64,000 nt of DNA from Deltaproteobacteria bacterium. GTDB lineage: Bacteria > Desulfobacterota > GWC2-55-46 > DRQE01. Both the position numbers and the translations under genes were made by a program. The notes beneath the pieces are model-generated. The model ran no database searches. It was given only the letters and a program-made list of their open reading frames with translations, and was not told the DNA's origin. The first letter of the stretch is position 1. Every line of letters begins with the position of its first letter. The stretch spans positions 210,936-274,935 of the forward strand of contig JAOUFM010000003.1 of NCBI GenBank assembly GCA_029858205.1. The letters run 5' to 3'. Below, in pieces: positions 13,090-29,426 of this stretch.

Positions 13090-13092
13090 AAA

Positions 13093-14034
<942 letters not shown>

Positions 14035-15171
14035 TTAACCTACCGTCAATTTACTATCTGTCCAGGCTATGCCTTTTTTGGCGAGTATCTTTCTGCCTTC
14101 ACCCTTTGAATCGACACCTGCGGCCTCAAGGTCATAATCCACCATTATCTTGACCAGATCCTTGAATGTTATCTCAGGGGTCCACCCGAGTTCCTTTTTG
14201 GCCTTTCTTATGTCAGCCTTAAGCACATCGACCTCTGTAGGCCTTAAATAACGGGGATCGAGCTCTATGATTGCGTATCCCGGCTTTAGACCGTCGGCAA
14301 TGCCTTTTTTAAGAGACTTTATTACTCCCTTTTCCTTAATGCCCTTGCCCTTCCATTCGATCTCTATTCCCGCATATTCGAATGCATGGTTCAAAAAGTC
14401 CCTTACCGACCTTGTATCGCCCGTGCCTATTACAAAATCCCCGGGCTTATCGTGCTGAAGGATGCGCCACTGGCATTCGACGTATTCGGGCGCAAACCCC
14501 CAGTCCCTTTTTGCGTCGAGGTTGCCAAGGTAAAGCTTTTTTTGCTTACCCGCGACTATCGCGGCAAGGGCGCGCGTGATTTTGCGCGTAACAAAAGTCT
14601 CGCCCCTTCTTGGAGATTCGTGGTTAAAAAGTATCCCGTTCGAGGCGAACATGCGGTAGCCTTCGCGGTAGTTTACGGTCATCCAGTACGAGTACACCTT
14701 TGCCGCGGCGTAAGGGCTCTGCGGCCGAAATACCGTTTTCTCGCTTTGCGGAGGAAGCGCGCTCCCAAACATTTCACTCGAAGACGCCTGATAAAAACGC
14801 GCAGGCACTCCGCTTCTCCTGACTGCCTCGAGAAGGCGTGTTGTGCCAAGTCCGGTGATGTCGCCTGTGTATTCGGGTATATCGAAACTCACGCGAACGT
14901 GGCTCTGGGCGCCGAGATGATAAATCTCGTTTGGCGCAATATTGTAAACCAGATTAACGAGCTGTCCCGAGTCCGAAAGGTCTCCGTAGTGAAGTAAAAG
15001 TTTTGTCCCCGGCAGGTGACGGTCCTTATATATATGATCTATCCTGTGGGTATTGAAGGTACTGGCGCGCCGTATTATGCCGTGCACCTCGTAGCCCTTG
15101 CTTAAGAGAAGTTCGGCAAGGTAGCTTCCGTCCTGCCCTGTTATTCCCGTTATAAGCGCGCGCTTTCCCAT
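14035..15171 (-). CDS. gmd: GDP-mannose 4,6-dehydratase
   Basis: [46 protein letters not shown] and [21 protein letters not shown] are highly characteristic of Gmd. Confidence 0.95.
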
Positions 15172-15172
15172 T

Positions 15173-15874
15173 CTATTCTCCCGGATTGTTTTTTATTATA
15201 GTAGGCCTCTCGGCCCAGCGTTTCTTATCGACAAAAACGGTGTTAACGAACGTATCGCCGCAGACGATATATCCATTACGCTCCATCACCTTGAATATTT
15301 CATCGTTCTTCCTGTTCTCGTTATAATAAACGGTCTCTATGCAAAACACCTCGGGTCTGTACTTCTTGAAATCGAAACTCTCGAGTATCTCGACCTCGAG
15401 GCCTTCGACGTCAATGGTTACAAGGTTCGGGCATTTATCGAAATATTTTTCGATTATCCCGTTTATGGGCACGACATTTATCTTCAACACCTTCGGCTCG
15501 CCGCTGCCAATACTCTTGTAACGCTCCATGGTTTCCCTGCTGCAGGTGCTAAGTGTTGTGCCGCCCGGTATAACGTAAAAATCAATGACCCCTGCCTTTG
15601 CCGCAACGCCGACATTAAGATTAACGTCCCTTCTTCTCTTAAAACCGAACTTGGCGAAAAGCTCCGGGTCTGGCTCCACGTTCACGCCCTTGCATCCGTT
15701 CTTGTAAAAATAGTACGTGTTACTGAACTTAACGGGGTCGTGCGCGCCGACATCAAGATAAGTGGGTTTACGTATCTTTAACGCCCTCAAGATGAAATCC
15801 GCAAGCACGTCCTCGCCTGCCTGGGCGTAAGATCTCTTATAATCTCTTTTGAATATATTCCTTATGAATTTCAT
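15173..15874 (-). CDS. FkbM-family methyltransferase
   Basis: Carries the motifs [19 protein letters not shown] and [14 protein letters not shown]. Confidence 0.75.
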
Positions 15875-15891
15875 CTCATTGAACTCCGGCC

Positions 15892-17217
15892 CTACGCCGG
15901 CACCACCTTTTTGCTTTTAAATTTCCTTGCCGCGCCTCTTGCATCCACCACTATCTTGCTGTTAACAGCTATCATCTTATAGTCGTAACACGTATGGTCC
16001 GTGGATATGACGACGCAATCGTATTTCTTTAACGCCGCGGGGGTAAGTTTCACGGACTTAAGTTCGATTGCATGGTGCCGCATCCTCGGCATCTTCGGCA
16101 CATAGGGGTCGTTATAATCCACCTTTGCGCCAAGCCCCTTTAGCATTTCTATGATATGCACGGAAGGAGACTCCCTCATGTCATCCACATCTTTTTTATA
16201 CGCCGCTCCGAGCACAAGGATACGCGAGCCTTTGACGGACTTGCCTTCCTTGTTTAGCGCTGTACCGACCTTCCCAATGACATAAGAAGGCATGGAGGTG
16301 TTTATCTCCCCGGCAAGCTCTATAAAGCGCGTTGCGAACTCGTACTCCTTCGCCTTCCACGTAAGGTAAAACGGGTCTATGGGAATGCAATGCCCGCCAA
16401 GGCCCGGGCCCGGATAAAAGGCCTGGAACCCGAAGGGCTTGGTCTTCGAGGCATCGATGACCTCCCATATGTCAATGCCCATCTTATCGGTAAGCATCTT
16501 AAGCTCGTTTACAAGCGCTATATTGACGCAGCGATATATATTCTCGAGAAGCTTTGTCATCTCTGCCGCGCGCGTGGTAGAGACCTCTACCACCTTATCT
16601 ATAATCTGCGAGTACAACAGACTGCCCGCTGCCAGACAATCCTTTGTAACACCGCCAACCACCTTGGGAATCGTCTTTGTCGAAAAATCCTTTCTCCCCG
16701 GATCTTCCCTTTCGGGCGAGAATACAAGGAAGTAATCTTTGCCGACACGAAGCCCTGTTTTTTCGAATTCCGTAAGAAGTATTTCGTCGGTTGTTCCGGG
16801 ATAAGTAGTGGACTCAAGAGAAACAAGCTGGCCTATTCTAAGGCGCTCCACTATCTCCTTTGTCGTACCGACAACATAGCTCATATCCGGCTCGCGCATC
16901 TTACCCAGCGGCGTAGGCACGCATATGATGACCGCATCCGGCTCCTTAAGCCTGTTCATGTCAGCGGTCGCGGCAAACTTCTTTCCCTTGACATGTTTTG
17001 CGATATCCCCTGCGGCTATGTGCTTTATGTAAGACCTTCCGGCATTGAGCGCCTTTACTTTGGACGAGTCAACATCGAACCCGAGCACCCTGAAGCCTTC
17101 GTCGCAGAACCTGAGTACCAGCGGCAACCCGACATAACCAAGCCCGATAACGCCTATGAGCGCGCTTCGTTTTTCTATTTTTTCAAGCAGTTTTTCTTTT
17201 ACGATATTTTTCGCCAT
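15892..17217 (-). CDS. nucleotide-sugar dehydrogenase (UDP-GlcNAc/UDP-ManNAc 6-dehydrogenase-like, WbpA/WecC/TviB group)
   Basis: N-terminal Rossmann [13 protein letters not shown], a catalytic region with [13 protein letters not shown], and a length of 441 aa. Confidence 0.85.
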
Positions 17218-17253
17218 AGCACCTCATTTAAAGCCGTTTCTCAGGATTTTTTC

Positions 17254-17868
17254 TCAAACCTGTCCTTTTTTGCTGATGTCTATGATCCGTGCCTGAACAA
17301 CCCCTGCCTCTATCAATGCCTTCGAAAGTTCCGCGCTTCTATAAAACGAAGTTATTACTATGGCCTCGGCTGCGCCGTCCCTGAGCTTTTCAATACCGAC
17401 AACCGGCATATCGAAAAACTTTTCGGTTCTTTCGATATCCGAAATGCAGACAAGCTCCAACCCGGCCTCCTTTAAAGACAGATACGCTATCTCGGCAACC
17501 TCATCTACGCCGCAGAAAGCGACTCTGCTTATGCCAAGCTCCTTCAACCTTGCAAACAGTTCAGCGAAATCCGTCCTCGCAACCCTGTAGAGGTTGGTAA
17601 AATTCCTCAGATGTTCGTAGGTGAGACGGGTCTTTTCAAGAAAACCATTTGGCGTAAGATAATATTTGTAGCGCTTTGCGGGAATACCGGAGACTGTTAT
17701 GTAACCTTTTGAAATGAGATTCTTTATGTAGGAATTTATGAGTCCCAGCGCAATACCGAGGTTTTTGCTTATTTCACGCTGGGTTAGGTCGCCGTTTCGC
17801 GATATCTCGTCAAGCACGAGAAGCGAACGGTACCCATCCATATGGCCGTTTTTATCCTCGCTGTTCAT
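17254..17868 (-). CDS. winged-helix (MarR-like) transcriptional regulator with C-terminal Rossmann-like domain; first gene of the glycan cluster
   Basis: LVLDEISRNGDLTQREISKNLGIALGLINSYIKNLISKGYITV is a wHTH segment. The start is uncertain: the track ORF begins at 17919, and I prefer ATG 17868 (MNSEDK). Confidence 0.55.
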   Translation of the reverse strand: MNSEDKNGHMDGYRSLLVLDEISRNGDLTQREISKNLGIALGLINSYIKNLISKGYITVSGIPAKRYKYYLTPNGFLEKTRLTYEHLRNFTNLYRVARTDFAELFARLKELGISRVAFCGVDEVAEIAYLSLKEAGLELVCISDIERTEKFFDMPVVGIEKLRDGAAEAIVITSFYRSAELSKALIEAGVVQARIIDISKKGQV

Positions 17869-18050
17869 ACTATGAACATACCATTTAATCAGGCATTTTG
17901 TCAAGTAAAACGCGTTCATGCAATGAACTGGCCGCGCGCAAAAAATTAGTAATTTACATTTGCCGGGGTTTTATTGTATGGTATATTACTTAAAATTCCC
18001 CGTGCTGTTTTATTAAAAAATATTCCAACTTCGCTATCTGAAAAGTAAAT

Positions 18051-18080
18051 TTGGCCATGCCAGTCTTTTTATGCTACAAT
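18051..18080 (+). promoter_or_regulatory. putative sigma-70 promoter for the five-gene cassette
   Basis: TTGGCC (18051-18056), an 18-nt spacer, then TACAAT (18075-18080), 22 nt upstream of ATG 18103. It lies inside a 183-nt AT-rich divergent intergenic region. Confidence 0.3.
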
Positions 18081-18102
18081 AAAAGATACGGGTATATCCA
18101 AC

Positions 18103-20238
18103 ATGAATGCCAGAGATTTTGAAAAAGAGATAAAAATCCACATCGAAGCGCGCTACCCCATTTTGTGGCTCGTATCGTTCGAAGAGCGCCGGGTCGAGCG
18201 CATCGTCGAAAACCTCTGCAATACCAACGGGTTCAAGTTCTGGACATGGTCCGTGTCAAAAGGGCTCTACGGTAGCGACAAAAAAAAGAAAGAGCCCGTT
18301 GGCAGGGAAAAAATCCTTACCTCCATTGAGGAAAAGATAGTAAAGAACGAGGAAATCAATAACTTCTTCCTTTTAAAGGACATTGCCGGGTATTTCCAAT
18401 CCCACGAGTTCCTAAGAAAGTTTCGCGACATCCCGGGCACCATCGAGGACTATCGCTCGCTTAACACCGTCTGCATCCTCTCGCCAACACTTAGCGAGAT
18501 TCCGCCGGAGCTCGAAGAAGACATCGTGGTAATCGAGCTTAGCCTGCCCGAGTACGACGAAATCGAGGAGATGGTAAACACGAACTTTTCCAAATACATC
18601 CCCGCGTCGTGGCATTCGTCTACGAGGTCGGTTCTCTACAAATCGCTACAGGGCCTTTCTCTAGATAACATCAAAAGGGTCGTAAGAAAGGCAATCAGCC
18701 TGAATAGAGGCGTGCTGAACGAAGAATGCATCAAGTACATACAGGACGAGAAGCAGCAAATCATAAAAAAGCAGCAGATACTCGATTACTACCCCTACAG
18801 GGAAACTATCGACCACATCGGCGGCCTCGATGAAATAAAAAAATGGTTCGTCGAGAGAGAGCATGTCTTCCGTTTAAGCAAGGGCAAAATCGAAACTCTC
18901 GGCCTTGACGTTCCAAAAGGCCTCATGCTAATTGGCGTTCCGGGCTCCGGGAAAAGCCTCTGCTGCAAGGCCCTTGCCGGCATCTGGAACCTTCCGCTTC
19001 TAAGAATGGACGTAGGCCGTCTCTTTGGCTCGACAGTCGGAGAGTCCGAGAAAAATATTCGTAAGGCCATACAGCTTGCAGAGGCGGTAAGCCCCTGCAT
19101 AATGTGGATCGACGAGATAGACAAGGCATTCGGCGGAATATCCGGTTTCCAGGGGGATTCGGGCACGCAGCTAAGGGTGTTTGGCACCTTCATCACATGG
19201 CTGCAGGAAAAGGACAAACCCGTCTTTGTCATAGCAACTGCCAACGACCCGAAAAACCTTCCTCCCGAGCTATGGAGAAAAGGCCGCTACGACGAAGTGT
19301 TCTTCGTCGATCTTCCAAGCGCCGAGGAAAGAGACGAAATATTCAAGATACACCTCGAAAGAAGAGGACAAAAACCGTCGAACTTCCGCTTAAAGGAACT
19401 CTCGCAGAACTCGCAGGGCTACACGGGCGCCGAGATAGAGCAGGCCATAAAGGACGCGGTCGTTGCCACATTCAACACTCTGCACGAGGGAAAAGAAGCA
19501 AAAGAGGCCGACGCAATAATAGACGGCACCTTAACCCTCTCACTCGACACGGCAACGCTTCTCGAAGCGATACGGCACATAACGCCGCTCTCGGTTCTGA
19601 AAAAAGAGGAGATCGAGGCGCTTCGCGAATGGAGCCAGCAAAGGGCGCGGCCCGCATCGAAGTCTCTCTTCATGCAGCGCGCAGAGATGCTCTCTGACGC
19701 GGAAAAGCGCACTATCGCCATACACGAGGCCGGACATATAATAATGATGTGGCATCACTTCAATGGCACGCCGGTCTTCGTGAGCATAGATAACTACAAG
19801 GACACCTCTGCATTCACCGGCAAGAGCGAAAGCCTCGTAAACACACTTACCAAGCGCGACCTGGAAAAGGAAATCGGCGTGATGCTTGGCGGCATGGTGG
19901 CCGAAGACGAGGTCGGCGGAGCGGACTCGAAAACTGTTGGCGCCTCGCACGACCTTAGCGACGCAACGGCCAAGGCAAGAAGAATGGTCGTGGAATACGG
20001 CTTTGGCGACATAATGAAGAACACGAGCCTTGTAGAGCTCCAGGAATACGCCATGATGTCCGGGAAAGACATTCTCGAGGACATACAGAAGATAATCCAC
20101 GGCGCAAAGGAAGAGACCGAGTCCGTCATTTCGAAGAACAAAGCGCTTCTCGAAAAGCTCGCGGACAAGCTCGTGGCGGAGATACTCGTAAACGGCGAGG
20201 GATTAAGGAATTTCCTTACGCAGCACAATCTGGAATAA
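18103..20238 (+). CDS. soluble AAA+ ATPase (Ycf46-like N-terminus) fused to C-terminal FtsH-type M41 zinc-metalloprotease domain
   Basis: Walker A GVPGSGKS (aa 278-285), Walker B CIMWIDEID, second region of homology ATANDPKNLPPELWRKGRYDEVFFVDLP, and Zn motif HEAGH (aa 541-545). FtsH-like LGGMVAEDEVGG and GASHDLSDATAKARRMVVEYGFG follow. The N-terminal 250 aa are hydrophilic (ARYPILWLVSFEERRVERIV) with no TM helix. Confidence 0.8.
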   Translation: MNARDFEKEIKIHIEARYPILWLVSFEERRVERIVENLCNTNGFKFWTWSVSKGLYGSDKKKKEPVGREKILTSIEEKIVKNEEINNFFLLKDIAGYFQSHEFLRKFRDIPGTIEDYRSLNTVCILSPTLSEIPPELEEDIVVIELSLPEYDEIEEMVNTNFSKYIPASWHSSTRSVLYKSLQGLSLDNIKRVVRKAISLNRGVLNEECIKYIQDEKQQIIKKQQILDYYPYRETIDHIGGLDEIKKWFVEREHVFRLSKGKIETLGLDVPKGLMLIGVPGSGKSLCCKALAGIWNLPLLRMDVGRLFGSTVGESEKNIRKAIQLAEAVSPCIMWIDEIDKAFGGISGFQGDSGTQLRVFGTFITWLQEKDKPVFVIATANDPKNLPPELWRKGRYDEVFFVDLPSAEERDEIFKIHLERRGQKPSNFRLKELSQNSQGYTGAEIEQAIKDAVVATFNTLHEGKEAKEADAIIDGTLTLSLDTATLLEAIRHITPLSVLKKEEIEALREWSQQRARPASKSLFMQRAEMLSDAEKRTIAIHEAGHIIMMWHHFNGTPVFVSIDNYKDTSAFTGKSESLVNTLTKRDLEKEIGVMLGGMVAEDEVGGADSKTVGASHDLSDATAKARRMVVEYGFGDIMKNTSLVELQEYAMMSGKDILEDIQKIIHGAKEETESVISKNKALLEKLADKLVAEILVNGEGLRNFLTQHNLE

Positions 20239-20248
20239 GGGCCCCGCT

Positions 20249-20587
20249 ATGTCGTTTTTCACAAAGCTCAACACCGAACTCAAAAACAAACAGTACGTGC
20301 TCGCTGCCATAGCCGCCCTTAAGCAGACAGGCGAGATAAAGAACTACGCCATAAACGAAAAGAAGGAAAGCGTCGAAATAAACCGCGCCGGCGACATTAT
20401 ACAGGTAGTAAAAACAAAGACCGGCGAGTACGAACTGCAGGGAGACGCAAGAGTGGTAAGCGCCTTCTCGAGCAGGCTAAAGCAGCTCTACGCGTACGAG
20501 GCAATCAAAGACAACATGCCGCTGGACTTCGAGATAGCCGAAGAGATAGAAACCGCCGGAGAGATCCGCATCGTGCTTAAAGGCTAA
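20249..20587 (+). CDS. DUF1257-like small protein (Ycf35-like)
   Basis: 112 aa. The N-terminus MSFFTKLNTELKNKQYVLAAIAALKQTG resembles the MSHF(S/T)xIKTxl...L..AL..LG opening I associate with DUF1257. It starts 10 nt after the AAA+ stop. Confidence 0.5.
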   Translation: MSFFTKLNTELKNKQYVLAAIAALKQTGEIKNYAINEKKESVEINRAGDIIQVVKTKTGEYELQGDARVVSAFSSRLKQLYAYEAIKDNMPLDFEIAEEIETAGEIRIVLKG

Positions 20588-20589
20588 AT

Positions 20590-20775
20590 ATGGGTAAAGA
20601 GATAAAAATAAAGATAACACCCGACGGCAAGGTCGAGATAGATTCGACCGTGTTCAAGGACTGTAAAGAGGTGGCCGAACACCTATCGAAGGTCATAGGA
20701 AAGGTCGAGGTCTTCACCATAAAAGAAGAACACGAGCGCGAAGAAAAACTTCGCATAAAAAAAGGCGACAAATAA
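20590..20775 (+). CDS. DUF2997-like small protein
   Basis: 61 aa. IKIKITPDGKVEIDSTVFKDCKEVAEHLSKVIG resembles the I.I..DG.V......G..C......L...LG pattern of DUF2997 as I recall it. It has a Lys/Glu-rich tail and a 2-nt gap from the previous gene. Confidence 0.45.
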   Translation: MGKEIKIKITPDGKVEIDSTVFKDCKEVAEHLSKVIGKVEVFTIKEEHEREEKLRIKKGDK

Positions 20776-20779
20776 GCAC

Positions 20780-21364
20780 ATGGCATCGTCGATATTCATA
20801 GACACGCACGCGATAATCGAGAGGTCGCGTGTAAACGGCCCAGGACAGAGGCTGGTGGTCTTTTTCCAGGGCTGTCACAGGAACTGTCCTGGCTGCTTCA
20901 ATCCGGCAACGCACTCAATCGGCACTGGCGTCAAATACGGCATACGGGAGATATTCGCGCGTTTCCTCTCTAAAAACGTAAGCGGCTTAACTGTTAGCGG
21001 AGGTGAGCCGTTTCTGCAAAGCGCGGCGCTCTGTGAACTGCTTAAAACCGCAAAACGCGAACACGGCCTTACGACCGCCGTGTACACGGGATTCACGATA
21101 GAGGAAATACGTTCATCAACGGAGCTTAGCCCTGCGCTCGAGCACATAGACGTGCTCATAGACGGGGCGTTCGACGAAAACAACACAGAAAGGACAACTC
21201 TTGCAAGAGGTTCCACAAACCAGCGCCTTCACTTTCTCTCCGGCGTTTATTCGATAGATGATTTTATTTTGCCAGGCAAAGCGGAGATAATAATCAACAA
21301 GGACGGTTCGGTGGTAGAGACCGGATTTTCGAAGCCGGCGGGAATAAACTCCATCCTCTTGTAA
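20780..21364 (+). CDS. NrdG/PflA-like radical-SAM activating enzyme (4Fe-4S single-cluster domain)
   Basis: SRVNGPGQRLVVFFQGCHRNCPGCFNPATH carries the CX3CX2C cluster motif (C32, C36, C39) in the NrdG-type context, and VSGGEPF is the SAM-binding GGE motif. 194 aa. Confidence 0.75.
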   Translation: MASSIFIDTHAIIERSRVNGPGQRLVVFFQGCHRNCPGCFNPATHSIGTGVKYGIREIFARFLSKNVSGLTVSGGEPFLQSAALCELLKTAKREHGLTTAVYTGFTIEEIRSSTELSPALEHIDVLIDGAFDENNTERTTLARGSTNQRLHFLSGVYSIDDFILPGKAEIIINKDGSVVETGFSKPAGINSILL

Positions 21365-21377
21365 AACGACCCACACC

Positions 21378-24161
21378 ATGACGATAGAGAACTTCTTCAG
21401 GGACAATTCCGGCATAGCGCGCACAAGCGCAGTTGAGCAGCGCGACGCGGCGCTAAAATACCTGCGCTCGCTGCCAGAGTCTAGCGACAGGGCCGAGGAC
21501 TTCAAATCGGCGTACGCGTACATACGAAACATCAGCGACGCCGAAGAAATGCGAAACGCACTCATCGAGCTTGCCATCACGATGCCAAAGCACGGCCCGT
21601 GCATGGACCTGTTTAAAGAAGTGTTCCCCGGCGCCATCAACTCCACAGACGCCATACCCGAGCCCATACACCGCAAATCAACGCTTACGCGCCTTGTAGA
21701 CTGCGTGCCCGACAAACCGGAGTACGCCGAGGCATACGCGCGCGTCGTGGAAAAATACATCGAGGCCGCAGACAAGATAGACGACCGCTTTGCGCGGCGC
21801 TACGCGCTTGCGGAAATTGCATCGAGACTCAAACACAGGGACGAATACGAAGCCCTCATGCTCCATGCCATGAAGGTGAGCCTCGGGTTTGCCGGCCTTC
21901 CGGGCTTTAGGCAATACTCGCTTCCCGAGATAGCAAGGGAACTTCCGAAAAGCTGCGACGTGGAGGTCTACAGAAACCACACATTCCTCGGGCTTGCGTT
22001 CTCGCTGCCGCACAGGGGCGAGTTCCTCGAACTCTTCAAAAAGGCCCTGACCACGGCCATCGAGTCAACGGAGCACATCGTTGAGCCGTATTACAAGAAA
22101 TACGCCCTTCTCTTCATGGCCAACAGGCTGCCCGAGACAGCAGAGTTTTTACCGCTAAGAAAGAGCGCTTTCAGGGCCGCCCTTGCCTCGGTCGACACGC
22201 TCGCCGACAGCTTCGCCAGGCAGTACGGATATAACGAATTCCTAAAGGACGTGCCAAAGACGCGCGAATTCTCCGACATACTGCTCGATACGGTCGAGAA
22301 GAGCCTTCCGTTCTTTTCTCTAAGAAGCCAGATGTCGGACTACGAGCCCATAGAGATACTCGACCGGATACTGATCGTCGCGGACAAAAAAATATCGGAT
22401 TCGAAGAAAAAACATTACACCCGCTTCCATTACGCCGATTTTTTCCTGAAACAGCTGAACCTGATAGCCGATAACTTAAACGATGTGCGCCTTCTGGAAA
22501 TTCTAAGGCCCTACACGCACGTATGGGTAAGGCCAAAAACTTTCAGGGACTCGATACGCAAGGTGTTCGACAAGGTCTCGTCCTTAAAAGGCAGATACCA
22601 CGGCGCCGAAGTAGAGCGTCCACTTTATGTCAGCGAGGCATGCCTCGGCATAGACAAACGAAGCCGCACGGCATCCGTTATGGCGGATACGCGCGAAGGC
22701 TACGCGCTCTCGATAGACCTTGGCGCCACCAATACCGTTGTAATGCTTAAAAAACCCGGGGCATTCCCGGAATTCGTCAACATAGAAGGATTATCCGAAA
22801 CCATCGGAAGCGTTGCCTTCATAAGCACGGCAGTAGACAAGAACAACGACTTGATAGGCGCTGCGGCGCCGGCCCAGTCGCGCTCGAACAACATAAAAAA
22901 ACTGTTCATGGAAGGCGACGAAGAGGGGCGCGAGCTCATCGAGAAGTTTTTCCGCATCCTGTACTCCAGAATAAAGGAATCTGTCGAGGTGCCCGGGTTT
23001 TTCAAGAAACTTTCCGGCAGGATTTTCGATACCGTTTCCGTGACAGTGCCGGTCGGGTATACGGATTACAGCGGCGAACTTACCAGAATCATCGAAAAAT
23101 ACGCGGGCAGCGCGCGCATAAAGCTCGTGGAAGAGCCGCTTGCTGCGGCGATAGGCTATAACGTGGCGGAGAAAAAGGAAAAATTCGTCCTTGTTCTCGA
23201 CTTTGGCGGCTGCACGCTCGACCCGATGCTTTTAAGGCTCTCTACCGACATGACACACGTCATAGCAAAGCCCGACAGATCCAAGATGCTTGGCGGGCGC
23301 GACATAGACCGCTGGGTGGCCGAGTACGTGAACGAAAAGCATAACCTTAGGACCAACCCTTCGGGGCACGAGGCCCTGACTGCGGCAGAGGCGCTGAAAA
23401 TAGAACTTAGCGCCAAAAACTCGGCGAAGTTCGTGTTTGGCGGCCGCGATATCGCGGAACTTACGCGCATAGAGTTCGAGGAGCTTCTCTCGCGCAGAGG
23501 GTTCTACAGCGACATAGACAGGGAACTTTCGAACGTGCTAAAAAAGGCTTCGAAGCTCGGCGTTTATAAATCCATGATAGAGGCCGTCATCATAACCGGG
23601 GGCTCTTCGCAGATACCGTCGTTCAAGGAAAAGATATCTCACTACTTCCACAACCTGGCCGTGCAAAACGCGATATACGACCACAGCCCGCTGTCGTCGG
23701 TCGCAAGGGGCGCGGCCCTCTACGGCACGGCCTCGGTGCTGGACCGCCACCTGGCCATGGCGTACGCAATAAAGCACATTGCAAGGGAAGAGGAAAAACA
23801 GTTTGCCTACGAAATCGTACTCGAAAAGGGCGAATCGCTTCCGTTCAAAAAGACCTTGCGCTTTACTCCTGCCATGACGCTCGGTGGACAGAAGGAAATA
23901 TTTCTCGAACTCTTCGAGGTGCCCGATTCCCTTATCGTACGGCGCTGGATATCCGAGGGCGGCATGGAGTTCATAAAGCAAATACTTAAGCACACGCCCG
24001 ACGAACTCGATCTGAGGGCTTTCAAGACCGTCACGCTTTCATTCGACGCTCCTATAGAAGGAAGCACAGACATCACATTTATAGTGGAAGAGAACGGACG
24101 ATTGAAGGTGCGCTACGAAAAAGACGGCCGCGAACTTGCAACCGACATACACCTTCAGTAA
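21378..24161 (+). CDS. 927-aa protein: N-terminal alpha-helical repeat region (about 440 aa) plus C-terminal Hsp70/DnaK-like actin-fold ATPase with beta-rich tail
   Basis: Hsp70 motifs are SIDLGATNTVV (phosphate-1, from about aa 445), EEPLAAAIGYN, VLVLDFGGCTLD (phosphate-2) and VIITGGSSQIPSF (adenosine). The N-terminus has recurring segments such as FARRYALAEIASRL, YYKKYALLFMANRLPETAEF, FARQYGYNEFLKDVPKTREF and YSLPEIARELPKS. Confidence 0.75.
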   Translation: MTIENFFRDNSGIARTSAVEQRDAALKYLRSLPESSDRAEDFKSAYAYIRNISDAEEMRNALIELAITMPKHGPCMDLFKEVFPGAINSTDAIPEPIHRKSTLTRLVDCVPDKPEYAEAYARVVEKYIEAADKIDDRFARRYALAEIASRLKHRDEYEALMLHAMKVSLGFAGLPGFRQYSLPEIARELPKSCDVEVYRNHTFLGLAFSLPHRGEFLELFKKALTTAIESTEHIVEPYYKKYALLFMANRLPETAEFLPLRKSAFRAALASVDTLADSFARQYGYNEFLKDVPKTREFSDILLDTVEKSLPFFSLRSQMSDYEPIEILDRILIVADKKISDSKKKHYTRFHYADFFLKQLNLIADNLNDVRLLEILRPYTHVWVRPKTFRDSIRKVFDKVSSLKGRYHGAEVERPLYVSEACLGIDKRSRTASVMADTREGYALSIDLGATNTVVMLKKPGAFPEFVNIEGLSETIGSVAFISTAVDKNNDLIGAAAPAQSRSNNIKKLFMEGDEEGRELIEKFFRILYSRIKESVEVPGFFKKLSGRIFDTVSVTVPVGYTDYSGELTRIIEKYAGSARIKLVEEPLAAAIGYNVAEKKEKFVLVLDFGGCTLDPMLLRLSTDMTHVIAKPDRSKMLGGRDIDRWVAEYVNEKHNLRTNPSGHEALTAAEALKIELSAKNSAKFVFGGRDIAELTRIEFEELLSRRGFYSDIDRELSNVLKKASKLGVYKSMIEAVIITGGSSQIPSFKEKISHYFHNLAVQNAIYDHSPLSSVARGAALYGTASVLDRHLAMAYAIKHIAREEEKQFAYEIVLEKGESLPFKKTLRFTPAMTLGGQKEIFLELFEVPDSLIVRRWISEGGMEFIKQILKHTPDELDLRAFKTVTLSFDAPIEGSTDITFIVEENGRLKVRYEKDGRELATDIHLQ

Positions 24162-24168: not shown

Positions 24169-24654
24169 CTATGCGTGGGATTTAAGGATTTTCTCTACGA
24201 TGTTCGTGGTGGAGAGCCCTTTTACGAGCCGTATCCTGGCAACGCGCCCGCCGTTTGCCATAACAACGTCCTCGCCGACTATCTGCCCTTTTTTCCAATC
24301 AGCGCCCTTTACAAGGATATCCGGCTTTACCGCGGTTATGAGCTTAATGGGTGTTGAATCGCCAAAGAGCACGACATAATCGACAAATCCGAGCGCCGAG
24401 AGCACCTCTGCGCGCTCTTTCTCCGGAACTATGGGGCGTTTGTGGCCTTTGATGCCCCTTACGGAAGAATCGCTGTTTAGACCGATAACGAGCACATCGC
24501 CAAGCGATGCCGCCTTTTTAAGATACCTCACATGCCCGGCATGCAGGATATCGAAACAGCCGTTCGTGAAAACAACCTTTTTCCTCTTCGCCTTTTGCCT
24601 TTTCAGGCATGTAAGCAGTTTTTTAAGCCCTACGATCTCTCCCACGCCTCGCAC
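24169..24654 (-). CDS. hldC: D-glycero-beta-D-manno-heptose 1-phosphate adenylyltransferase (RfaE domain II type, stand-alone)
   Basis: VVFTNGCFDILHAGHVRYLKKAASLGDVLVIGLNSDSSV is the cytidylyltransferase-fold HxGH motif in the RfaE-II context. 161 aa. Confidence 0.85.
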   Translation of the reverse strand: MRGVGEIVGLKKLLTCLKRQKAKRKKVVFTNGCFDILHAGHVRYLKKAASLGDVLVIGLNSDSSVRGIKGHKRPIVPEKERAEVLSALGFVDYVVLFGDSTPIKLITAVKPDILVKGADWKKGQIVGEDVVMANGGRVARIRLVKGLSTTNIVEKILKSHA

Positions 24655-24684
24655 CGCGCAATGTTCGACATTCGTATAACGATA

Positions 24685-25431
24685 TCACAGTTTGACTGCC
24701 ATGGCAAACGTGGCAACATAGACCGCTGCCCCGGCCCTGGCAAGCACCTTTGAGCACTCGGCTATGGTCGCTCCGGTGGTACACACGTCGTCGATGAGAA
24801 GAACGCGCCTGTTCTTTACCGCGCCCTTGTCCCTGAGCGCAAAGGCGTCTTTCACGTTCGCACTCCGCTCGTTGTGCTCGAGCTCGACCTGCGGCCTGGT
24901 GTGCCTGATCCTTTCGAGATTGTCGTAAGAAAGGCGTGCGCCAAGCCTTTTCGAAACCTCGCGCGCTATAAGAAGCGACTGGTTAAAACCGCGCTCCCTT
25001 AGCCGTTTTAAATGAAGCGGCACGGGCATGACCGTATCGAAGCCGCCTTCGCCAAGACCTTTCGCAGCCAGAGACACCCACTTGGCCATCGGCCGCGCAA
25101 GCTCGGTCTTTTTATTGTACTTTAAATCGCGCACCGCCTCCGCAACATTGCCATCGTAGAAAAACGCACTGCGCATCGCCTCGAACCAGCGCTTTTCCGT
25201 AAGACATTCGCCGCAGCTACCCGGCGTTTCTATCGCTCCGGCAAAAGGCCTGCCGCATTTTACGCAGTGCGCAGCATCGGATATCTTCCTGATACTATCG
25301 AGACAGGCATTGCAAAGCCAGCTGTCCGAAGCTGTCTTGCCGCAAAAGCGGCAGAGGTTCGGGAAAAACACGTCCAGAAAAGGCAGCGCAAAAGTTTTCG
25401 CCCTTTTTCCAAGCTCCGTTGCCGTTATCAT
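24685..25431 (-). CDS. comF: ComF family protein (phosphoribosyltransferase domain with N-terminal Cys-rich zinc finger)
   Basis: N-terminal CRFCG...CNAC...CVKCGRP...CGEC cysteines, and the PRTase motif VLLIDDVCTTGATI. Confidence 0.8.
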   Translation of the reverse strand: MITATELGKRAKTFALPFLDVFFPNLCRFCGKTASDSWLCNACLDSIRKISDAAHCVKCGRPFAGAIETPGSCGECLTEKRWFEAMRSAFFYDGNVAEAVRDLKYNKKTELARPMAKWVSLAAKGLGEGGFDTVMPVPLHLKRLRERGFNQSLLIAREVSKRLGARLSYDNLERIRHTRPQVELEHNERSANVKDAFALRDKGAVKNRRVLLIDDVCTTGATIAECSKVLARAGAAVYVATFAMAVKL

Positions 25432-27026
25432 GCCAGGCCCCCTTTGGGCGCTGCAGGCAGCTTGACCGTGAACACCGAACCCTTGCCAGGCTTGCTATCT
25501 ACGAAGATATTGCCGCCGTGCTCCCTGACTATGCCCCTGCTAACGCTAAGGCCAAGGCCGGTGCCTACCCCAGGCTCTTTTGTCGTAAAGAACGGCTCGA
25601 AAAGCCTTGCCACCGTTCTCTCATCCATTCCCGTGCCCGTATCGCTGACACTTAATATGACATGACGTGAGTCAGGGCCGTCCTCGCACTCCGTTGCAAG
25701 CACAATCTCTCCGCCGCCAGGCATGGCGTCCCGCGCGTTGGCAACGAGATTTACGATTACCTGCTCGAGCCTGGTAGAATCGCCGATAACAGGCGGCAGC
25801 GTTCCTTTTTCAAACCTGACCTCTACACCGCTTTTCTTTAGTATCTCGCCAACGACTATGAACGCATCGTCGATAACGGCATTTAAGTCCACCTGTTTGT
25901 ACACGGGATTATCCTGACGCATGAACACGCGAAGATGCCCGACTACATTTTCCATCTTTCTTGCCGCAGAGTCTATTACTTTTAATTTTTCGAACACATC
26001 GGCGTCCATGCCTTCCTTTTTAAGAAGGTGCTGGGTAAGCCCGCTTACCACCGTAAGCGGCTGCCTTAGCTCGTGCGCGAGCACGGCAGACATCTCGCCA
26101 AGGGCCCTAAGCTTCGAGACCTGCGTCAGATGGTCCTGTGCCTGCTTGAGTTCGTTGTACGCGGCCTTCAAGTCCTTTTCTCCGTCATCGAGGATCTTTA
26201 CCATGCCAACAAGGCTGTCGACCACTTCCTCGTGCCTGCGCTCTCTTTGCTCAAGCTCCCTTTTTACCGCGCGCACCTCGCTACGTAACTCTTCGACCTT
26301 GCCCGTCTCCGTAAACACAATGACAAAACCGTCCCTTATGGTATCGAGTTTCATGGCAGCGGCCCGGATGCGTTTTTTTACTCCGCCGATTCTGGCTTCA
26401 ACGGTCATCGGGGAAGAACCAAGCACATCCATATCAACATCGCCCAAGACCTGCGCTATGTTTGGCCCCTTGGCCCCGGCATAAACGAGACCAAATGTAT
26501 CCAGAAACGTCTTGCCTGCATACAGAATGTTCCCCTTCGAATCAACGGCACAGACAAAAAAATCGCTCACAGACAAGGCCTTGCTTACTATCTCCACCTC
26601 TGCCTCCACGAGACCAACGGCCCTGCCAAGCATCGATACAAGCCCATCGTCTTTTCCGTGCTTTTTTGCCACTCCCGACATTTCAAGCCTGCTCCACTTC
26701 AATTCCAGCAAACTGCTTCTTTTAACGACCGCCGCTGCCCCGACAAACAACGTATCCAATATAGCCACTATCTTCTTCCAGAAAATAACGGAAAATACGA
26801 TACCGACCGCCAGGCCTACCAGGACAGAAAACCCAAAACTGACATATTGCGCCTGCTCCAGTATCTTTTCAGGCTCGACGGCGCCAAGTATATTCGAACT
26901 ATCCACATCCTCGACATAAAAAAGAAAAACAACCCTGGCGCCAAGGGCAATCAGCACAACGCCAAGCATTGCCGCCAGAATCGAAAGCGAAAGTTTTTTT
27001 CTTACATCCAAGAATTCTTTATGCAT
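25428..27026 (-). CDS. membrane sensor histidine kinase (2 TM, PAS-like, HisKA, HATPase_c)
   Basis: The H-box is LGEMSAVLAHELRQPLT. The N/G boxes are NLVANARDAM, DTGTGMD and GTGLGLSVSRGIV. It overlaps comF by 4 nt (ATGA). Confidence 0.85.
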   Translation of the reverse strand: MHKEFLDVRKKLSLSILAAMLGVVLIALGARVVFLFYVEDVDSSNILGAVEPEKILEQAQYVSFGFSVLVGLAVGIVFSVIFWKKIVAILDTLFVGAAAVVKRSSLLELKWSRLEMSGVAKKHGKDDGLVSMLGRAVGLVEAEVEIVSKALSVSDFFVCAVDSKGNILYAGKTFLDTFGLVYAGAKGPNIAQVLGDVDMDVLGSSPMTVEARIGGVKKRIRAAAMKLDTIRDGFVIVFTETGKVEELRSEVRAVKRELEQRERRHEEVVDSLVGMVKILDDGEKDLKAAYNELKQAQDHLTQVSKLRALGEMSAVLAHELRQPLTVVSGLTQHLLKKEGMDADVFEKLKVIDSAARKMENVVGHLRVFMRQDNPVYKQVDLNAVIDDAFIVVGEILKKSGVEVRFEKGTLPPVIGDSTRLEQVIVNLVANARDAMPGGGEIVLATECEDGPDSRHVILSVSDTGTGMDERTVARLFEPFFTTKEPGVGTGLGLSVSRGIVREHGGNIFVDSKPGKGSVFTVKLPAAPKGGLA

Positions 27027-27032
27027 TTATAT

Positions 27033-28298
27033 TTACGTCTCTTCCCGAAAATCGTCCTTAACGCCCCGCTCTCGAAGCGTTTGGCTGCCGAATGTTCCGG
27101 CCTCCTGTTTATGCATTTCCCTTTTTACGGCAAGTATGGCCAGGTCCTCGAGATTCTTTATTGCCGCCTTCAGTTTTTGCTCGCTTTCCTCGGCCCTGAC
27201 CCTTGCCTCTACGGCCTCGTCCATAAGACGCTTTTTTTCGCTCACATCTCTGGCAACAAGCAGCGCAGACTCGATTTTTCCGCCCGATGCAAGCGGCACT
27301 GCGGTTATATCCCATATACCGTCTTTGCTGCCGCCAAACTCCCTTGGTTCCTGCGGCCTTCCGTCGAACACAGCGGCCAGGAACGCTTTATAATCCAAGT
27401 CCGCTGACTTATCCATGAAATCGCCAAAGCGCGCGCCAAGGAGCCCGCTGCCGCTTTTCTTTAAAAGCCTCATCGCCCCGTGGTTCGCGTACTTTATCCT
27501 GCCGGCCCGGTCAAGTTCTACAACGCAGTCGGGCAATGACTCGAGTATCTCAATATAATGCGCTATGGAGTCCTTCAGCATAGCAACTGCCGCGTTATAA
27601 TATGCCGCGATATCGGCCAACTCGACAGTTCCTTTTTCGTCAAGTTGATAATTATAATTACCTTTGGCAAGGCACTCCATGCCAAGAACCGTGTTTTCAA
27701 GCGGCTCGACAACGATTCTACGATTAATAAGATACATTATCAAAAAACACACAACGAAGAATACGGCAAAGGCCGCTGTCATGGTCTTCATTCGCATGAC
27801 ATTTGCCGCATAATGCGCGGACATAAGCCGCACATTATCGTCTATCTGGTTTATCAGGCCCGGAATCAATACATCGAGGATCTCCGTCCGCTTACTTCTG
27901 CTGACTTTCTTATCTTTAAACTCCTTTAATGCGGTCTTTACGTTCCCCCAGCCCGCCTCAGTTGCATTAAGGCTTTTTATTATTTCCTCATTCTCGGCAA
28001 AACCCGATGTTCCATACCTGGCATCTCCGTGCTTGAGGCCATAGAGAACGCTGTCTACCTGCCCGATGTTTTCATCCAGCGCATGGGAAATTCTATCAAA
28101 TTCAGCCTCCGAAGCATTCACAGACCTTAAAACAAGATTCTGTATAGACACTACGAAAAACCTCTGACGCCCCACAAGGTTTATTTCCCCATGGCTGCCG
28201 TGGAGCGTATTAACCGTATTGACCATTAACGCAAAAAATATAATGGCAATAAGCAACAACACTCCTATGAATGATTTTGCCAGATTGGCGGATTTCAT
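27033..28298 (-). CDS. membrane sensor protein (PilJ-type N-terminal sensor helix bundle, HAMP, PAS, coiled coil) without output domain
   Basis: The LVGRQRFF motif is typical of PilJ/NarX-like periplasmic sensor domains. It also has a TM segment, a HAMP-like INRRIVVEPL...AYYNAAVAMLKD, a PAS-like ILESLPDCVVELDRAGRIKYANHGAMRLL, and a C-terminal charged coiled coil. It ends 6 nt before the kinase gene. Confidence 0.6.
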   Translation of the reverse strand: MKSANLAKSFIGVLLLIAIIFFALMVNTVNTLHGSHGEINLVGRQRFFVVSIQNLVLRSVNASEAEFDRISHALDENIGQVDSVLYGLKHGDARYGTSGFAENEEIIKSLNATEAGWGNVKTALKEFKDKKVSRSKRTEILDVLIPGLINQIDDNVRLMSAHYAANVMRMKTMTAAFAVFFVVCFLIMYLINRRIVVEPLENTVLGMECLAKGNYNYQLDEKGTVELADIAAYYNAAVAMLKDSIAHYIEILESLPDCVVELDRAGRIKYANHGAMRLLKKSGSGLLGARFGDFMDKSADLDYKAFLAAVFDGRPQEPREFGGSKDGIWDITAVPLASGGKIESALLVARDVSEKKRLMDEAVEARVRAEESEQKLKAAIKNLEDLAILAVKREMHKQEAGTFGSQTLRERGVKDDFREET

Positions 28299-28538
28299 AG
28301 GCCCTATAAAATCAATTTTTATGTATAAATCGGTTTGGTTTTTAAGGAAACGTTTAGCTGCGCTACTTACTGTATAATTATACCAAATATTATTATTATA
28401 TCAAGCCGTAATTCCGGCTCAGGTATATCAATTAACGTTCCTGCGTAAGCTCATAAAAAACTTTCATTTAAATTGCCGCTATGTTATCCTTTTATTCTTA
28501 AAGTATAGCGTAAAACTTACGCGCCAAATCGGACAACC

Positions 28539-29426
28539 ATGGTTTTCGACAGCATAAAAGCAGGACTCTTAAAAACCCGTAACGCGATAGTCGGCGGAAT
28601 ATCCTCGGCCCTTGGCATGGCGCCGACAGCAGAGACACTTGAGAAGCTCGAGGAATCGCTTCTTACCGCAGACATAGGGGTCGAAACTTCCACGGAAATA
28701 ATCGAAGCAATCAAGACGGGCAGCGGCAAAGAGCCGGACGCCCTTGCCGGAGTAATCCGCTCGAAGATTTTCGACATAATGAGGACGGTTGAGGCGCCGC
28801 TCTCCGTGGCCCCCCAGACTCCTTTTGTAATAATGGTGCTCGGCGTAAACGGGGTTGGCAAGACAACCACCATCGGAAAGCTTGCAACGTATTTTTCCGC
28901 CAAAGGTAAAAACGTGCTCATTGGCGCTGGCGACACCTTTCGCGCAGCGGCCATAGAACAACTAGACGTCTGGTGCAAACGTGCGAACTGCCAGGTCGTA
29001 AAGCACTCGCACGGCGCAGACCCTGCGGCGGTTGCCTACGACACCATACGCTCGGCAATATCCAAAAAGGCCGATGTCGTAATCCTCGACACAGCCGGAA
29101 GGCTGCATACGAAAACCAACCTCATGGAAGAACTAAAAAAAATAAAGCGCGTCATGGAAAAGGAACTCCCCGGCGCGCCACACGAAAGGCTTCTCGTGCT
29201 CGACGCCTCGACCGGCCAGAACGCCCTTAACCAGGCGCGCCTCTTTAACGAGGCCGTCGGGGTGACCGGCATAATAGTGACAAAACTCGACGGCACGGCA
29301 AAGGGCGGCATAATCGTGCCAATGGCCAGGGAGCTGAAAATTCCCATCCGTTTCATCGGGGTTGGAGAGAGCGCCGAAGACTTAAAGGAATTCAACGCAA
29401 AGGATTTCGCTGACGCCATAGTGTAG
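28539..29426 (+). CDS. ftsY: signal recognition particle receptor FtsY (NG domain only)
   Basis: Carries VLGVNGVGKTTTIGKLA, GDTFRAAAIEQL, LDTAGRLH and TKLDGTAKGG. At 295 aa it has no acidic A domain. Confidence 0.9.
   Translation: MVFDSIKAGLLKTRNAIVGGISSALGMAPTAETLEKLEESLLTADIGVETSTEIIEAIKTGSGKEPDALAGVIRSKIFDIMRTVEAPLSVAPQTPFVIMVLGVNGVGKTTTIGKLATYFSAKGKNVLIGAGDTFRAAAIEQLDVWCKRANCQVVKHSHGADPAAVAYDTIRSAISKKADVVILDTAGRLHTKTNLMEELKKIKRVMEKELPGAPHERLLVLDASTGQNALNQARLFNEAVGVTGIIVTKLDGTAKGGIIVPMARELKIPIRFIGVGESAEDLKEFNAKDFADAIV

Follow-up and report, generated by a model that had tools for sequence, protein, structure and literature searches.

A conserved five-gene operon of uncultured anaerobic bacteria encoding a Ycf46-type AAA+-M41 protease, two small proteins, an NrdG-like radical SAM enzyme and a solenoid-Hsp70

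Five plus-strand genes, g1 to g5, in a 64,000-nucleotide stretch of a Deltaproteobacteria bacterium genome (assembly GCA_029858205.1, contig JAOUFM010000003.1, positions 210,936 to 274,935; hereafter the window) form one vertically inherited, strongly conserved operon of uncultured anaerobic bacteria. In order, the cassette encodes a AAA+ ATPase with a Ycf46-type N-domain and an M41 metalloprotease domain (g1), a divergent DUF1257 protein (g2), a DUF2997 mini-protein (g3), an NrdG-like radical S-adenosylmethionine (SAM) enzyme (g4) and an alpha-solenoid fused to a lidless Hsp70 (g5) (Table 1). It is best filed as an elaborated form of a widespread AAA/DUF1257/DUF2997 module, which also occurs in phages, in cyanobacteria-like contigs and across many bacteria. 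A housekeeping-like, stress-linked proteolysis machine fits the evidence better than a defence system does, and defence, maintenance of the class III ribonucleotide reductase (RNR) and peptide maturation are all less likely.

Results

Conservation and vertical descent of the cassette

A homologue search with g5 returned 54 full-length relatives at 37–48% identity, and a scan of species-representative genomes returned 90 relatives, all of them in metagenome-assembled genomes (MAGs) of Deltaproteobacteria/Thermodesulfobacteriota and some Nitrospirae/Nitrospirota. With the window proteins as tblastn queries, the complete g1-g2-g3-g4-g5 set was recovered with its order kept in about 60 loci, which is every locus with enough upstream DNA (loci from relatives and metagenomes carry L-numbers, and protein clusters from the search with the g1 N-domain carry P-numbers). 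The sole exception to the five-gene order is L034, where a HEPN/MNT-like pair and an outer-membrane gene precede g5. Nitrospirota loci, found via g4, hold the same five genes in entirely different flanks. A preliminary description of this DNA had proposed a five-gene system and left it to stand or fall with conserved co-occurrence; the five genes do co-occur, with unchanged order, in about 60 independent genomes.

The cassette proteins evolve slowly. Over the same genome pairs, mean identity was 80% for g1, 73% for g2, 66% for g3, 58% for g4 and 56% for g5, compared with 71% for DnaJ, 61% for HrcA, 60% for GrpE and 50% for HemN as housekeeping controls; within the window's sub-clade, the corresponding values were 77% for g1 and 70.5% for UDP-glucose dehydrogenase. 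Synteny with hemN, an LPG-synthase-like gene and hrcA-grpE-dnaJ is kept in many loci, which argues for vertical descent of the cassette. In 12–18 loci, an hrcA-grpE-dnaJ operon is found 5–9 kb downstream of the cassette, and its grpE and dnaJ are not separated by dnaK. The GC content of the cassette (0.47–0.55) is the same as that of its flanks, and no integrase, transposase or tRNA was seen at its borders. The earlier view that the cassette is not a recent island is upheld by its GC content, its conserved synteny and its housekeeping-like rates. Taken together, the slow rates, the synteny and the lack of recurrent defence neighbours point to a vertically inherited core function rather than to an arms-race gene.

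An anti-phage or abortive-infection role, also raised in the preliminary description, would have the AAA-M41 protein degrade phage or host proteins once the solenoid-Hsp70 sensed infection, by analogy with IetAS. We regard this as unlikely. The PADLOC IetA models match the AAA part of g1 (E 4.5e-32) and the NCBIfam IteA model gives 102 bits, but these matches cover the generic AAA domain only, and the IteA cutoff is 510 bits. PADLOC returned nothing for g2 and g3 and only weak matches for g4 (pVip, E 1.3e-07 and 7.2e-05) and g5 (PDC-M61B, E 5.5e-05). Selfish elements do lie in or beside the cassette in several relatives. Restriction-modification genes separate g3 from g4 in L060/L005 (6601-9143; C5-methylase, NgoFVII and Vsr) and a Dam-like methylase with a 248-aa open reading frame (ORF) does so in L058 (7628-9264), L020 has an IS200-like ORF that separates g4 from g5 (8218-8813), the HEPN/MNT-like pair of L034 is upstream of g5 (1564-2255), and L081 has extra ORFs between g4 and g5 (84-1880). 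The cassette genes are all intact in these relatives despite such insertions. A defence role would also fit with the g5 solenoid as the fastest-evolving part of the cassette and with the carriage of the core triad by phages, which could be counter-defence mimicry. Against this, none of the five proteins evolves faster than housekeeping genes, essentially every member of the clade that was sampled carries the cassette in conserved chromosomal synteny, the GC content of the cassette is not atypical, and PADLOC found only scattered one- or two-member matches among 149 immediate neighbours, with no family recurring. The abortive-infection alternative is therefore disfavoured by the housekeeping-like rates and the absence of recurrent defence neighbours.

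In 26 of 57 loci, g5 is closely followed by a gene for a tetratricopeptide repeat (TPR) protein of about 145 aa (e.g., L042 12899-13348 and L001 12864-13295). It was considered as a sixth core component and rejected, as its spacing to g5 varies, some loci have it on the opposite strand and the window lacks it; sub-clade synteny is the better description.

A soluble Ycf46-type AAA+ ATPase with an M41 protease domain

Judged by its sequence, g1 is a predicted soluble AAA+ ATPase of the Ycf46-type family that gained an M41 domain with intact catalytic motifs. The AAA domain (PF00004, E 6e-30) covers aa 274-403 and the protease domain (PF01434, Peptidase_M41, E 2e-19) covers aa 529-699, and the PHROGs family phrog_8638 matches aa 3-526 with an E-value of 6e-128. 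Walker A (GVPGSGKS), Walker B (WIDEIDK) and the arginines of RKGRYDE are invariant in 59 g1 orthologues, in which the HEAGH motif and the GAS.D aspartate (the third zinc ligand) of the M41 domain are also conserved. No N-terminal transmembrane anchor or periplasmic domain was found in g1, where Kyte-Doolittle hydropathy over 19 aa peaks at 1.17 in the Walker A strand, and none of g1–g5 has a transmembrane-like segment. The NCBIfam FtsH equivalog model gives 173.1 bits against a cutoff of 600. The pore-1 loop of an unfoldase is usually aromatic-hydrophobic-Gly. In g1 this loop (aa ~309-313) reads T-V-G, aligned to W-Y-G of Cdc48 D2, and has no aromatic residue; T-V-G is invariant within the clade, and relatives outside it carry L/I-V-G. 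The segment RVFGTF of g1 was tried as a glycyl-radical site and rejected, because Ser replaces its Gly in the radical SAM-linked protein of L088 and it belongs to an ordinary AAA helix.

Searched alone with HMMER, the g1 N-domain (aa 1-235) gave 1169 clusters (50% identity) at E<=1e-3. The 711-aa orthologues make up a single cluster, and nearly all the others are ~500-aa proteins of N-domain plus AAA, with 26–35% identity. Residues 1-520 of g1 are 40–41% identical to the ~500-aa AAA proteins that adjoin DUF1257/DUF2997 genes, including 41% over 520 aa to the AAA protein of L088. A second, distant AAA-M41 fusion (P0203/L087) is 35% identical to g1 over its full length and is directly followed by a 188-aa NrdG-like gene, while P0248 joins the N-domain and AAA to a complete Lon protease. 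Protease domains, M41 and Lon, have been fused to this AAA family at least two times. Other family members have an N-terminal Ser/Thr kinase (P0221) or inteins in the AAA domain (many members, including P0195, P0211, P0191, P0279 and P0302), some of them with LAGLIDADG endonucleases.

The cassette elaborates a widespread AAA/DUF1257/DUF2997 module

The AAA/DUF1257/DUF2997 core is ancestral, and the protease, the radical SAM enzyme and the Hsp70 are recurrent additions to it. In L088, an Elusimicrobia MAG, genes for an NrdG-like enzyme, AAA, DUF1257 and DUF2997 follow one another with overlapping stops and starts. L090 has AAA-Lon, DUF1257 and DUF2997, then an ORF starting IAIDFGTTNTVVA, which is the Hsp70 phosphate-1 motif. 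Using a diverse alignment of the ~500-aa family as query, we searched metagenome contigs and annotated 80 loci with local hidden Markov models (HMMs): DUF1257 and/or DUF2997 adjoin the AAA gene in 28 of them, an NrdG-like enzyme sits within the module in five (L099, L114, L124, L152 and L165) in three gene orders, and the M41, solenoid and Hsp70 parts were found in none of the 80. The AAA(Ycf46-type)/DUF1257/DUF2997 neighbourhood that the preliminary description had named is real (L088, L090, phage L338C and the 28 metagenome loci). Links to an activase and an Hsp70 also exist outside the cassette: the same NrdG-like subfamily accompanies the ~500-aa AAA triad of other phyla in L088 and the five metagenome loci, and an Hsp70-like gene follows the set of L090.

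Phages also carry the module, and PHROGs has families for all three core proteins. Rhizobium phage vB_RleS_L338C (L092, 40500-43819) encodes AAA (gp050), gp051, DUF1257 (gp052) and DUF2997 (gp053). In an IMG/VR viral contig (L091, 7188-9509), a 193-aa ORF beside the AAA gene has a confirmed DUF2997 at aa 133-177; its N-terminal part has an MSH start and looks DUF1257-like by eye only, with no Pfam or PHROGs DUF1257 match. Such a fusion would be a Rosetta-stone hint that DUF1257 and DUF2997 work together. An AAA relative is present in Mycobacterium phage Corndog (gp96, cluster O; L093), with no DUF1257 or DUF2997 detected among its neighbours. A cyanobacterial-looking contig (L164; GUN4-kinase and Uma2 neighbours) has a small RHH-like gene, AAA and DUF1257 in a row.

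Several further genes accompany the module. Between DUF1257 and DUF2997 lies a TPR protein in L103 (2223-3041) and L114 (2623-3405) and an AhpC/TSA-thioredoxin-fold protein in L120 (9918-10715). Helical-repeat partners of the TPR kind recur around the module, and the AhpC/thioredoxin-fold gene accords with the idea of a thiol-redox theme linked to the invariant cysteine of DUF2997. In L124 (1477-3116), a Phage_GPD baseplate-hub-like gene directly precedes the radical SAM-AAA pair, and this copy may belong to a prophage or a contractile injection system.

In cyanobacteria, the relatives of this module respond to stress. The Synechocystis genes slr0373-slr0374(ycf46)-slr0376 form a multi-stress operon (PMC7496141), and the three-gene ycf46 operon of Synechococcus PCC 7942 is induced by severe oxidative stress and darkness, needs (p)ppGpp and encodes a KaiC-interacting AAA ATPase (bioRxiv 10.1101/2025.07.21.665879). 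A cyanobacterial DUF2997-DUF1257(ycf35)-fed7 cluster has been described (PMC4284462), and ycf35 and ycf46 both tend to be missing from freshwater red algal plastid genomes (PMC5940233).

The two small proteins

The small protein g2 is a TBP/KA1-like binding scaffold, and g2 and g3 are ancestral obligate partners of g1. At default thresholds g2 has no Pfam match, and DUF1257 is its top weak Pfam family (19 of 51 orthologues, E 0.016). Profile comparison with the canonical DUF1257 proteins beside related AAA genes gave an hhalign probability of 96.4% (E 1.2e-9, 111 columns, end to end). Like canonical DUF1257 proteins, g2 begins with MS[H/F], of which the MS start is invariant; an N-terminal MSH signature of Ycf35 has been described (PMC13060386). 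Run against PDB sequences, the g2 profile yielded nothing beyond a chance match to fibrinogen (E 0.32), which was discarded.

PF11211 (DUF2997) matches 51 of 51 g3 orthologues with a best E-value of 4.4e-6; for the window copy the score is 20.1 bits, short of the 24.1-bit gathering cutoff. Among DUF2997 proteins from 22 contexts, linked to a radical SAM enzyme or not, neither the Cys nor the hairpin Gly varies. The G.KG and EYY motifs are lost from g3. The full length of g3 is under strong purifying selection.

The small g3 ORF, 4 nt upstream of a radical SAM gene in an operon with a protease, might recall the maturation of ribosomally synthesized and post-translationally modified peptides (RiPPs): the radical SAM enzyme would act on g3 as a precursor peptide, and the M41 domain would then cut it. 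Radical SAM-modified peptide effectors have been proposed for FtsH ternary systems (Kaur et al. 2020, PMC7159879). We hold this reading to be very improbable. Strong purifying selection acts on all of g3, which is a conserved folded DUF2997 domain also found in modules without a radical SAM enzyme or protease, the NrdG-type g4 has no SPASM or RRE domain, and no exporter or immunity gene is present.

A distinct subfamily of NrdG-like radical SAM enzymes

On the strength of its motifs and tail, g4 is assigned to a radical SAM subfamily distinct from canonical NrdG and found specifically with the AAA/DUF1257/DUF2997 module, because module-linked radical SAM enzymes from 8 contexts have in common a C-terminal extension of about 40 aa with a hairpin motif. 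Fer4_12 matches g4 with an E-value of 7e-34. The best NCBIfam model is NrdG (TIGR02491; E 5.5e-34), at 117.3 bits against an equivalog cutoff of 126.1; it stops near aa 151, about 40 residues short of the C-terminus, and canonical NrdG has about 154 aa. PHROGs gives phrog_626, 'anaerobic RNR small subunit' (E 9e-33), and the pyruvate formate-lyase activating enzyme is the sole solved relative. CxxxCxxC (CX3CX2C) and SGGEPF are conserved across orthologues. The motif in the g4 tail suggests a resemblance to the N-terminal PDG hairpin of DUF2997, although at about 10 residues it is too short to prove homology. With an HMM of the DUF2997 hairpin from the window's clade, the tail scored no better than reversed or shuffled controls. 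An HMM from diverse DUF2997 hairpins matched in the tail of 68 of 68 orthologues, with a median score beyond the 99th percentile for 792 background ORFs; of 10 diverse radical SAM enzymes, 5 also passed that percentile.

The NrdG likeness raises an account in which g4 activates NrdD or another glycyl-radical enzyme encoded elsewhere, and the Hsp70 and the protease present this enzyme and clear its oxygen-cleaved copies. The NrdG model falls just under its cutoff, phrog_626 agrees with it, the catalytic motifs of g4 are all conserved, the carriers are anaerobes by taxonomic label, and an external client is plausible, as no cassette protein has a glycyl-radical motif. Nevertheless, such maintenance is improbable in our judgement. 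No NrdD or glycyl-radical domain was found among the annotated genes of L001, L003, L005, L085, L086 and L088 or among the window ORFs of at least 560 aa, so that the term 'orphan' used for this enzyme in the preliminary description applies within the window and the fetched loci only. The 40-aa extension of g4 and its module-linked relatives continues beyond the end of the NrdG model, and the occurrence of the subfamily with AAA/DUF1257/DUF2997 in at least 8 contexts and in reshuffled orders points to a partner inside the module.

A solenoid fused to a lidless Hsp70

The Pfam Hsp70 match of g5 is limited to aa 551-783, and its solenoid has no Pfam match. The AlphaFold model (23 homologues; predicted local distance difference test score (pLDDT) 77.7 overall and mostly 80–95 in the solenoid) has four parts, namely the solenoid, a helical linker, a complete actin-fold nucleotide-binding domain and a beta-sandwich. 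In Foldseek, about 540 columns of g5 align to lid-less DnaK and BiP structures (E 1e-19). Little or no variation is seen in DLGATNT, DFGGxT and TGGSSQIPS, the phosphate-1, phosphate-2 and adenosine motifs. The solenoid is the most variable and fastest-evolving part of the whole cassette. In L071 (9959-10849 and 10872-12554) and L077 (2188-3036 and 3027-4481), the solenoid and Hsp70 parts are separate ORFs, which reflects either a real split or a frameshift; if the split is real, the solenoid is a separable subunit. With the profile evidence given above, all five domain calls of the preliminary description stand (AAA, M41, Fer4_12, Hsp70 and DUF2997 directly, DUF1257 through hhalign).

The closest NCBIfam models for the g5 nucleotide-binding domain bring up the handling of Fe-S or other redox cofactors: an HscA-like Hsp70 and a small Cys protein would assemble, repair or recycle the [4Fe-4S] cluster of g4 or those of further Fe-S proteins, and the protease would clear damaged apoproteins. 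HscA is the best of these models (E 1e-28 versus 1e-23 for DnaK), the DUF2997 Cys is invariant, and Fe-S or thiol-redox partners recur, namely the radical SAM enzyme, cyanobacterial fed7 and the AhpC/thioredoxin-fold gene. However, HscA scores 100 bits against a cutoff of 620 and DnaK 83 bits against 648, the margin of HscA over DnaK is small, no IscU, HscB, NifU or cysteine desulfurase is linked in any annotated locus, and a lone cysteine is unable to bind a cluster by itself. A role in cofactor handling is therefore quite unlikely.

Locus layout and flanks

The five ORFs are packed with intergenic gaps of 10, 2, 4 and 13 nt. The ORF list of the window confirms the packing, strand and gaps given in the preliminary description, and the motifs named there are invariant or nearly so across 58–72 orthologues of the cassette proteins. 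Long minus-strand ORFs border the cassette (570-17919 and 24169-28298). The 183-nt gap before g1 (17920-18102) is AT-rich and contains the TTGGCC-N18-TACAAT element noted earlier; the element is present as described, but alone it is no evidence of a promoter, because it is one of several such matches there (further 9/12 matches at 17953 and 17960; in all 9 sigma-70-like sites versus 4.6 +/- 2.2 in shuffles). A CIRCE/HrcA operator had no match anywhere in the window, even with 3 mismatches. At the 3' end, the stop of g5 (24161) is 7 nt from the stop of a convergent 161-aa gene (24169), and no hairpin lies within these 7 nt, as reported; the neighbour, formerly read as hldC-like, is CTP_transf_like.

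Table 1. Coordinates of the cassette genes, their domains and associated features (window positions unless a locus is named).
Feature	Position	Strand	Description
g1	18103-20238	+	711 aa
g1 N-terminal domain	18103-18807	+	aa 1-235; Ycf46-type N-domain, as in ~500-aa AAA proteins
g1 AAA+ ATPase module and lid	18808-19662	+	classic clade; PF00004
g1 M41 zinc metalloprotease domain	19687-20238	+	PF01434
g2	20249-20587	+	112 aa; divergent DUF1257/Ycf35, TBP-like/KA1-like alpha/beta fold
g3	20590-20775	+	61 aa; DUF2997 mini-protein, N-terminal PDG hairpin, one invariant Cys (DCKE)
g4	20780-21364	+	194 aa; NrdG/PflA-type radical SAM enzyme, ~40-aa module-specific C-terminal extension
g5	21378-24161	+	927 aa; alpha-solenoid fused to lidless Hsp70
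g5 N-terminal alpha-solenoid	21378-22337	+	aa 1-320; all helical hairpins in the AlphaFold2 model; helical linker to ~aa 406
g5 Hsp70 nucleotide-binding domain	22623-23723	+	aa 416-782; PF00012, E 5e-27
g5 substrate-binding-like domain	23760-24161	+	aa 795-925; beta-sandwich without alpha-helical lid, strands in the AlphaFold2 model
Sigma-70-like promoter candidate TTGGCC-N18-TACAAT	18051-18080	+	9/12 match, preceded by TG
Terminator-like hairpin for the CTP_transf_like gene	24144-24125	-	within the final 40 nt of the g5 reading frame
hrcA-grpE-dnaJ, example in L001	18530-21374		
hrcA-grpE-dnaJ, example in L003	18198-21028		

The flanks (14035-17919 and 24169-35340) hold ordinary chromosomal genes. 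Upstream, ORFs resembling GDP-mannose dehydratase, FkbM-like methyltransferase and UDP-glucose dehydrogenase were recognized by eye, and a MarR/winged helix-turn-helix regulator (Pfam; 17254-17919) is divergent from g1, with homologues at the same position in 5 loci. Downstream are CTP_transf_like, ComF-like, PAS, CysS and GlnA genes (Pfam) and a sensor kinase-like ORF (by eye). One Nitrospirota locus (L086, 1-4702) carries a Wadjet/Mks-like set, made up of DUF3375, JetB/MksE and an SbcC-like ATPase, some 2.5 kb upstream of its cassette; no such set was seen in the other loci.

Discussion

Proposed function

We propose that the cassette encodes a regulated, stress- or redox-linked proteolysis or remodelling machine for specific cellular proteins, and we place this proposal at about even chances. 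Hsp70 and AAA+ machines are known to cooperate functionally, as in the DnaK-ClpB bi-chaperone. Here, the solenoid-Hsp70 would capture or hold clients or partner proteins and hand them to the AAA-M41 hexamer, and the lid-less Hsp70 with its fast-evolving solenoid may serve as the client- or partner-binding arm. That this AAA family was fused independently to M41 and to Lon suggests that the AAA unfolds substrates for a protease. As non-enzymatic, co-translated partners, g2 and g3 would most likely be an adaptor, a gate or a regulated pseudo-substrate. The oxygen-labile g4 might modify a partner protein or report anoxia and in this way couple activity to the redox state. An NrdG-type enzyme requires a protein to act on, and here the most likely one is a member of the core triad, because the enzyme travels with the triad where protease and Hsp70 are missing (L088 and L165). 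The redox or stress role is argued from the invariant DUF2997 thiol, from the Fe-S and thiol-redox partners (radical SAM enzyme, fed7 and AhpC-like gene) and from the induction of the cyanobacterial operon by oxidative stress. The cassette could be the anaerobe counterpart of that oxidative-stress-induced ycf46 operon, with the oxygen-labile radical SAM step as a possible sensor. Catalytic competence is predicted for all the enzymatic parts, in which the Walker motifs, HEAGH and GAS.D, CX3CX2C and GGE, and the Hsp70 motifs are all conserved. With the preliminary description, we infer that the Hsp70 may act as the recogniser and that the small proteins may be targets of the radical SAM enzyme.

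A more specific version of this mechanism is a 'radical fuse'. In it, g4 would put an oxygen-labile radical, glycyl or other, or a radical-derived mark on DUF2997 or DUF1257, and loss of this radical or mark to oxygen or an oxidant would release or activate the AAA+-M41 protease and the Hsp70. We consider the fuse a long shot. If true, it would be a new signalling use of glycyl-radical-activase chemistry and a mechanistic entry to the Ycf46/Ycf35 module of cyanobacteria, plastids and phages.

Several observations weigh against the proposed proteolysis machine. The T-V-G pore-1 loop of g1 is without the aromatic residue usual in processive unfoldases, and the Pfam scan found no J-domain protein or nucleotide-exchange factor (GrpE) encoded in the cassette. 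The glycyl-radical fingerprint R-[IVLT]-x-G-[YFWH] had no conserved match in g1–g5 in a regular-expression search of 59–73 orthologues each. The link to stress and redox is borrowed from cyanobacterial relatives. The restriction-modification, toxin-antitoxin and insertion-sequence insertions in a few relatives could hint at a defence-island-like locus.

Significance

For decades, Ycf46 and Ycf35 have been 'hypothetical chloroplast reading frames'. The cyanobacterial Ycf46 operon is among the most strongly stress-induced loci. The cassette and its sub-cassettes show what this module recruits, namely a protease domain (M41 or Lon), an Hsp70 and a radical SAM enzyme of the glycyl-radical-activase type, and from these recruits we argue that the core is a substrate-delivery or gating unit for a AAA+ unfoldase. 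In the literature on DUF2997, DUF1257, PF11211, PF06868, Ycf46 and Ycf35, no paper was found that connects them with a protease, an Hsp70 or a radical SAM enzyme. As far as we searched, an NrdG-type activase tied genetically to a AAA+ protease and Hsp70 has no earlier description, and no characterised homologous operon was found in that literature, in line with the novelty suspected at the outset. If functional, this tie would widen the known uses of the NrdG-type enzyme class. An open annotation problem becomes a set of specific questions about complex formation and proteolysis and about radical or thiol chemistry in two very small proteins.

Comparison with known systems

The cassette is not FtsH, NrdG or DnaK proper, as it fails the defining features of each. 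Like FtsH, whose Thermotoga maritima representative is among the solved relatives of g1, g1 has a classic-clade AAA+ module followed by M41 with HExxH and the GAS.D aspartate. Unlike FtsH, it has a 235-aa Ycf46-type N-domain in place of the transmembrane helices and periplasmic domain, T-V-G in place of F-V-G in the pore-1 loop, and dedicated partner genes. With NrdG and PflA, g4 has in common the Fer4_12 fold family, the N-terminal NGPG...GCxxxCxGC, the GGEP SAM motif and a GSxNQ motif, whereas it scores below the NrdG equivalog cutoff, has the conserved ~40-aa C-terminal hairpin extension, has no glycyl-radical enzyme nearby and is tied genetically to the AAA+/DUF1257/DUF2997 module. Among atypical Hsp70s and Hsp70-AAA+ pairs (DnaK-ClpB, HscA/HscC), g5 resembles the known members in its nucleotide-binding motifs, its beta-sandwich and its position beside a AAA+ machine. 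It differs in the missing helical lid and the N-terminal solenoid and linker of 400 aa, its partner is a protease and not a disaggregase, and the operon has no J-protein or GrpE.

Two multi-gene systems come close in composition. The FtsH ternary systems (Kaur, Burroughs, Iyer and Aravind 2020, eLife, PMC7159879) also contain an FtsH-type AAA+ protein with an extra N-domain, a protein whose N-terminal domain is large and all-alpha, a radical SAM enzyme and small standalone proteins, but they are defined by a MoxR ATPase and vWA and are without Hsp70, DUF1257 and DUF2997 (PMC7159879). No MoxR or vWA domain was found in the cassette or its annotated relatives. IetAS likewise pairs a AAA+ ATPase with protease activity, yet none of g1–g5 matches a PADLOC IetS model, and the rates and context of the cassette are unlike those of defence genes.

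The nearest kin is the Ycf46/Ycf35/DUF2997 module. The cyanobacterial ycf46 operon (slr0373-slr0374-slr0376; Synpcc7942_0416-0418) is probably related to the cassette by its AAA family; the JGI labels are at the COG level only. The AAA-DUF1257-DUF2997 order of the module is that of g1-g2-g3; in contrast, g2 lies below the Pfam gathering threshold, g3 is without G.KG and EYY, and the cassette adds a fused M41 domain, an NrdG-like radical SAM enzyme and a solenoid-Hsp70.

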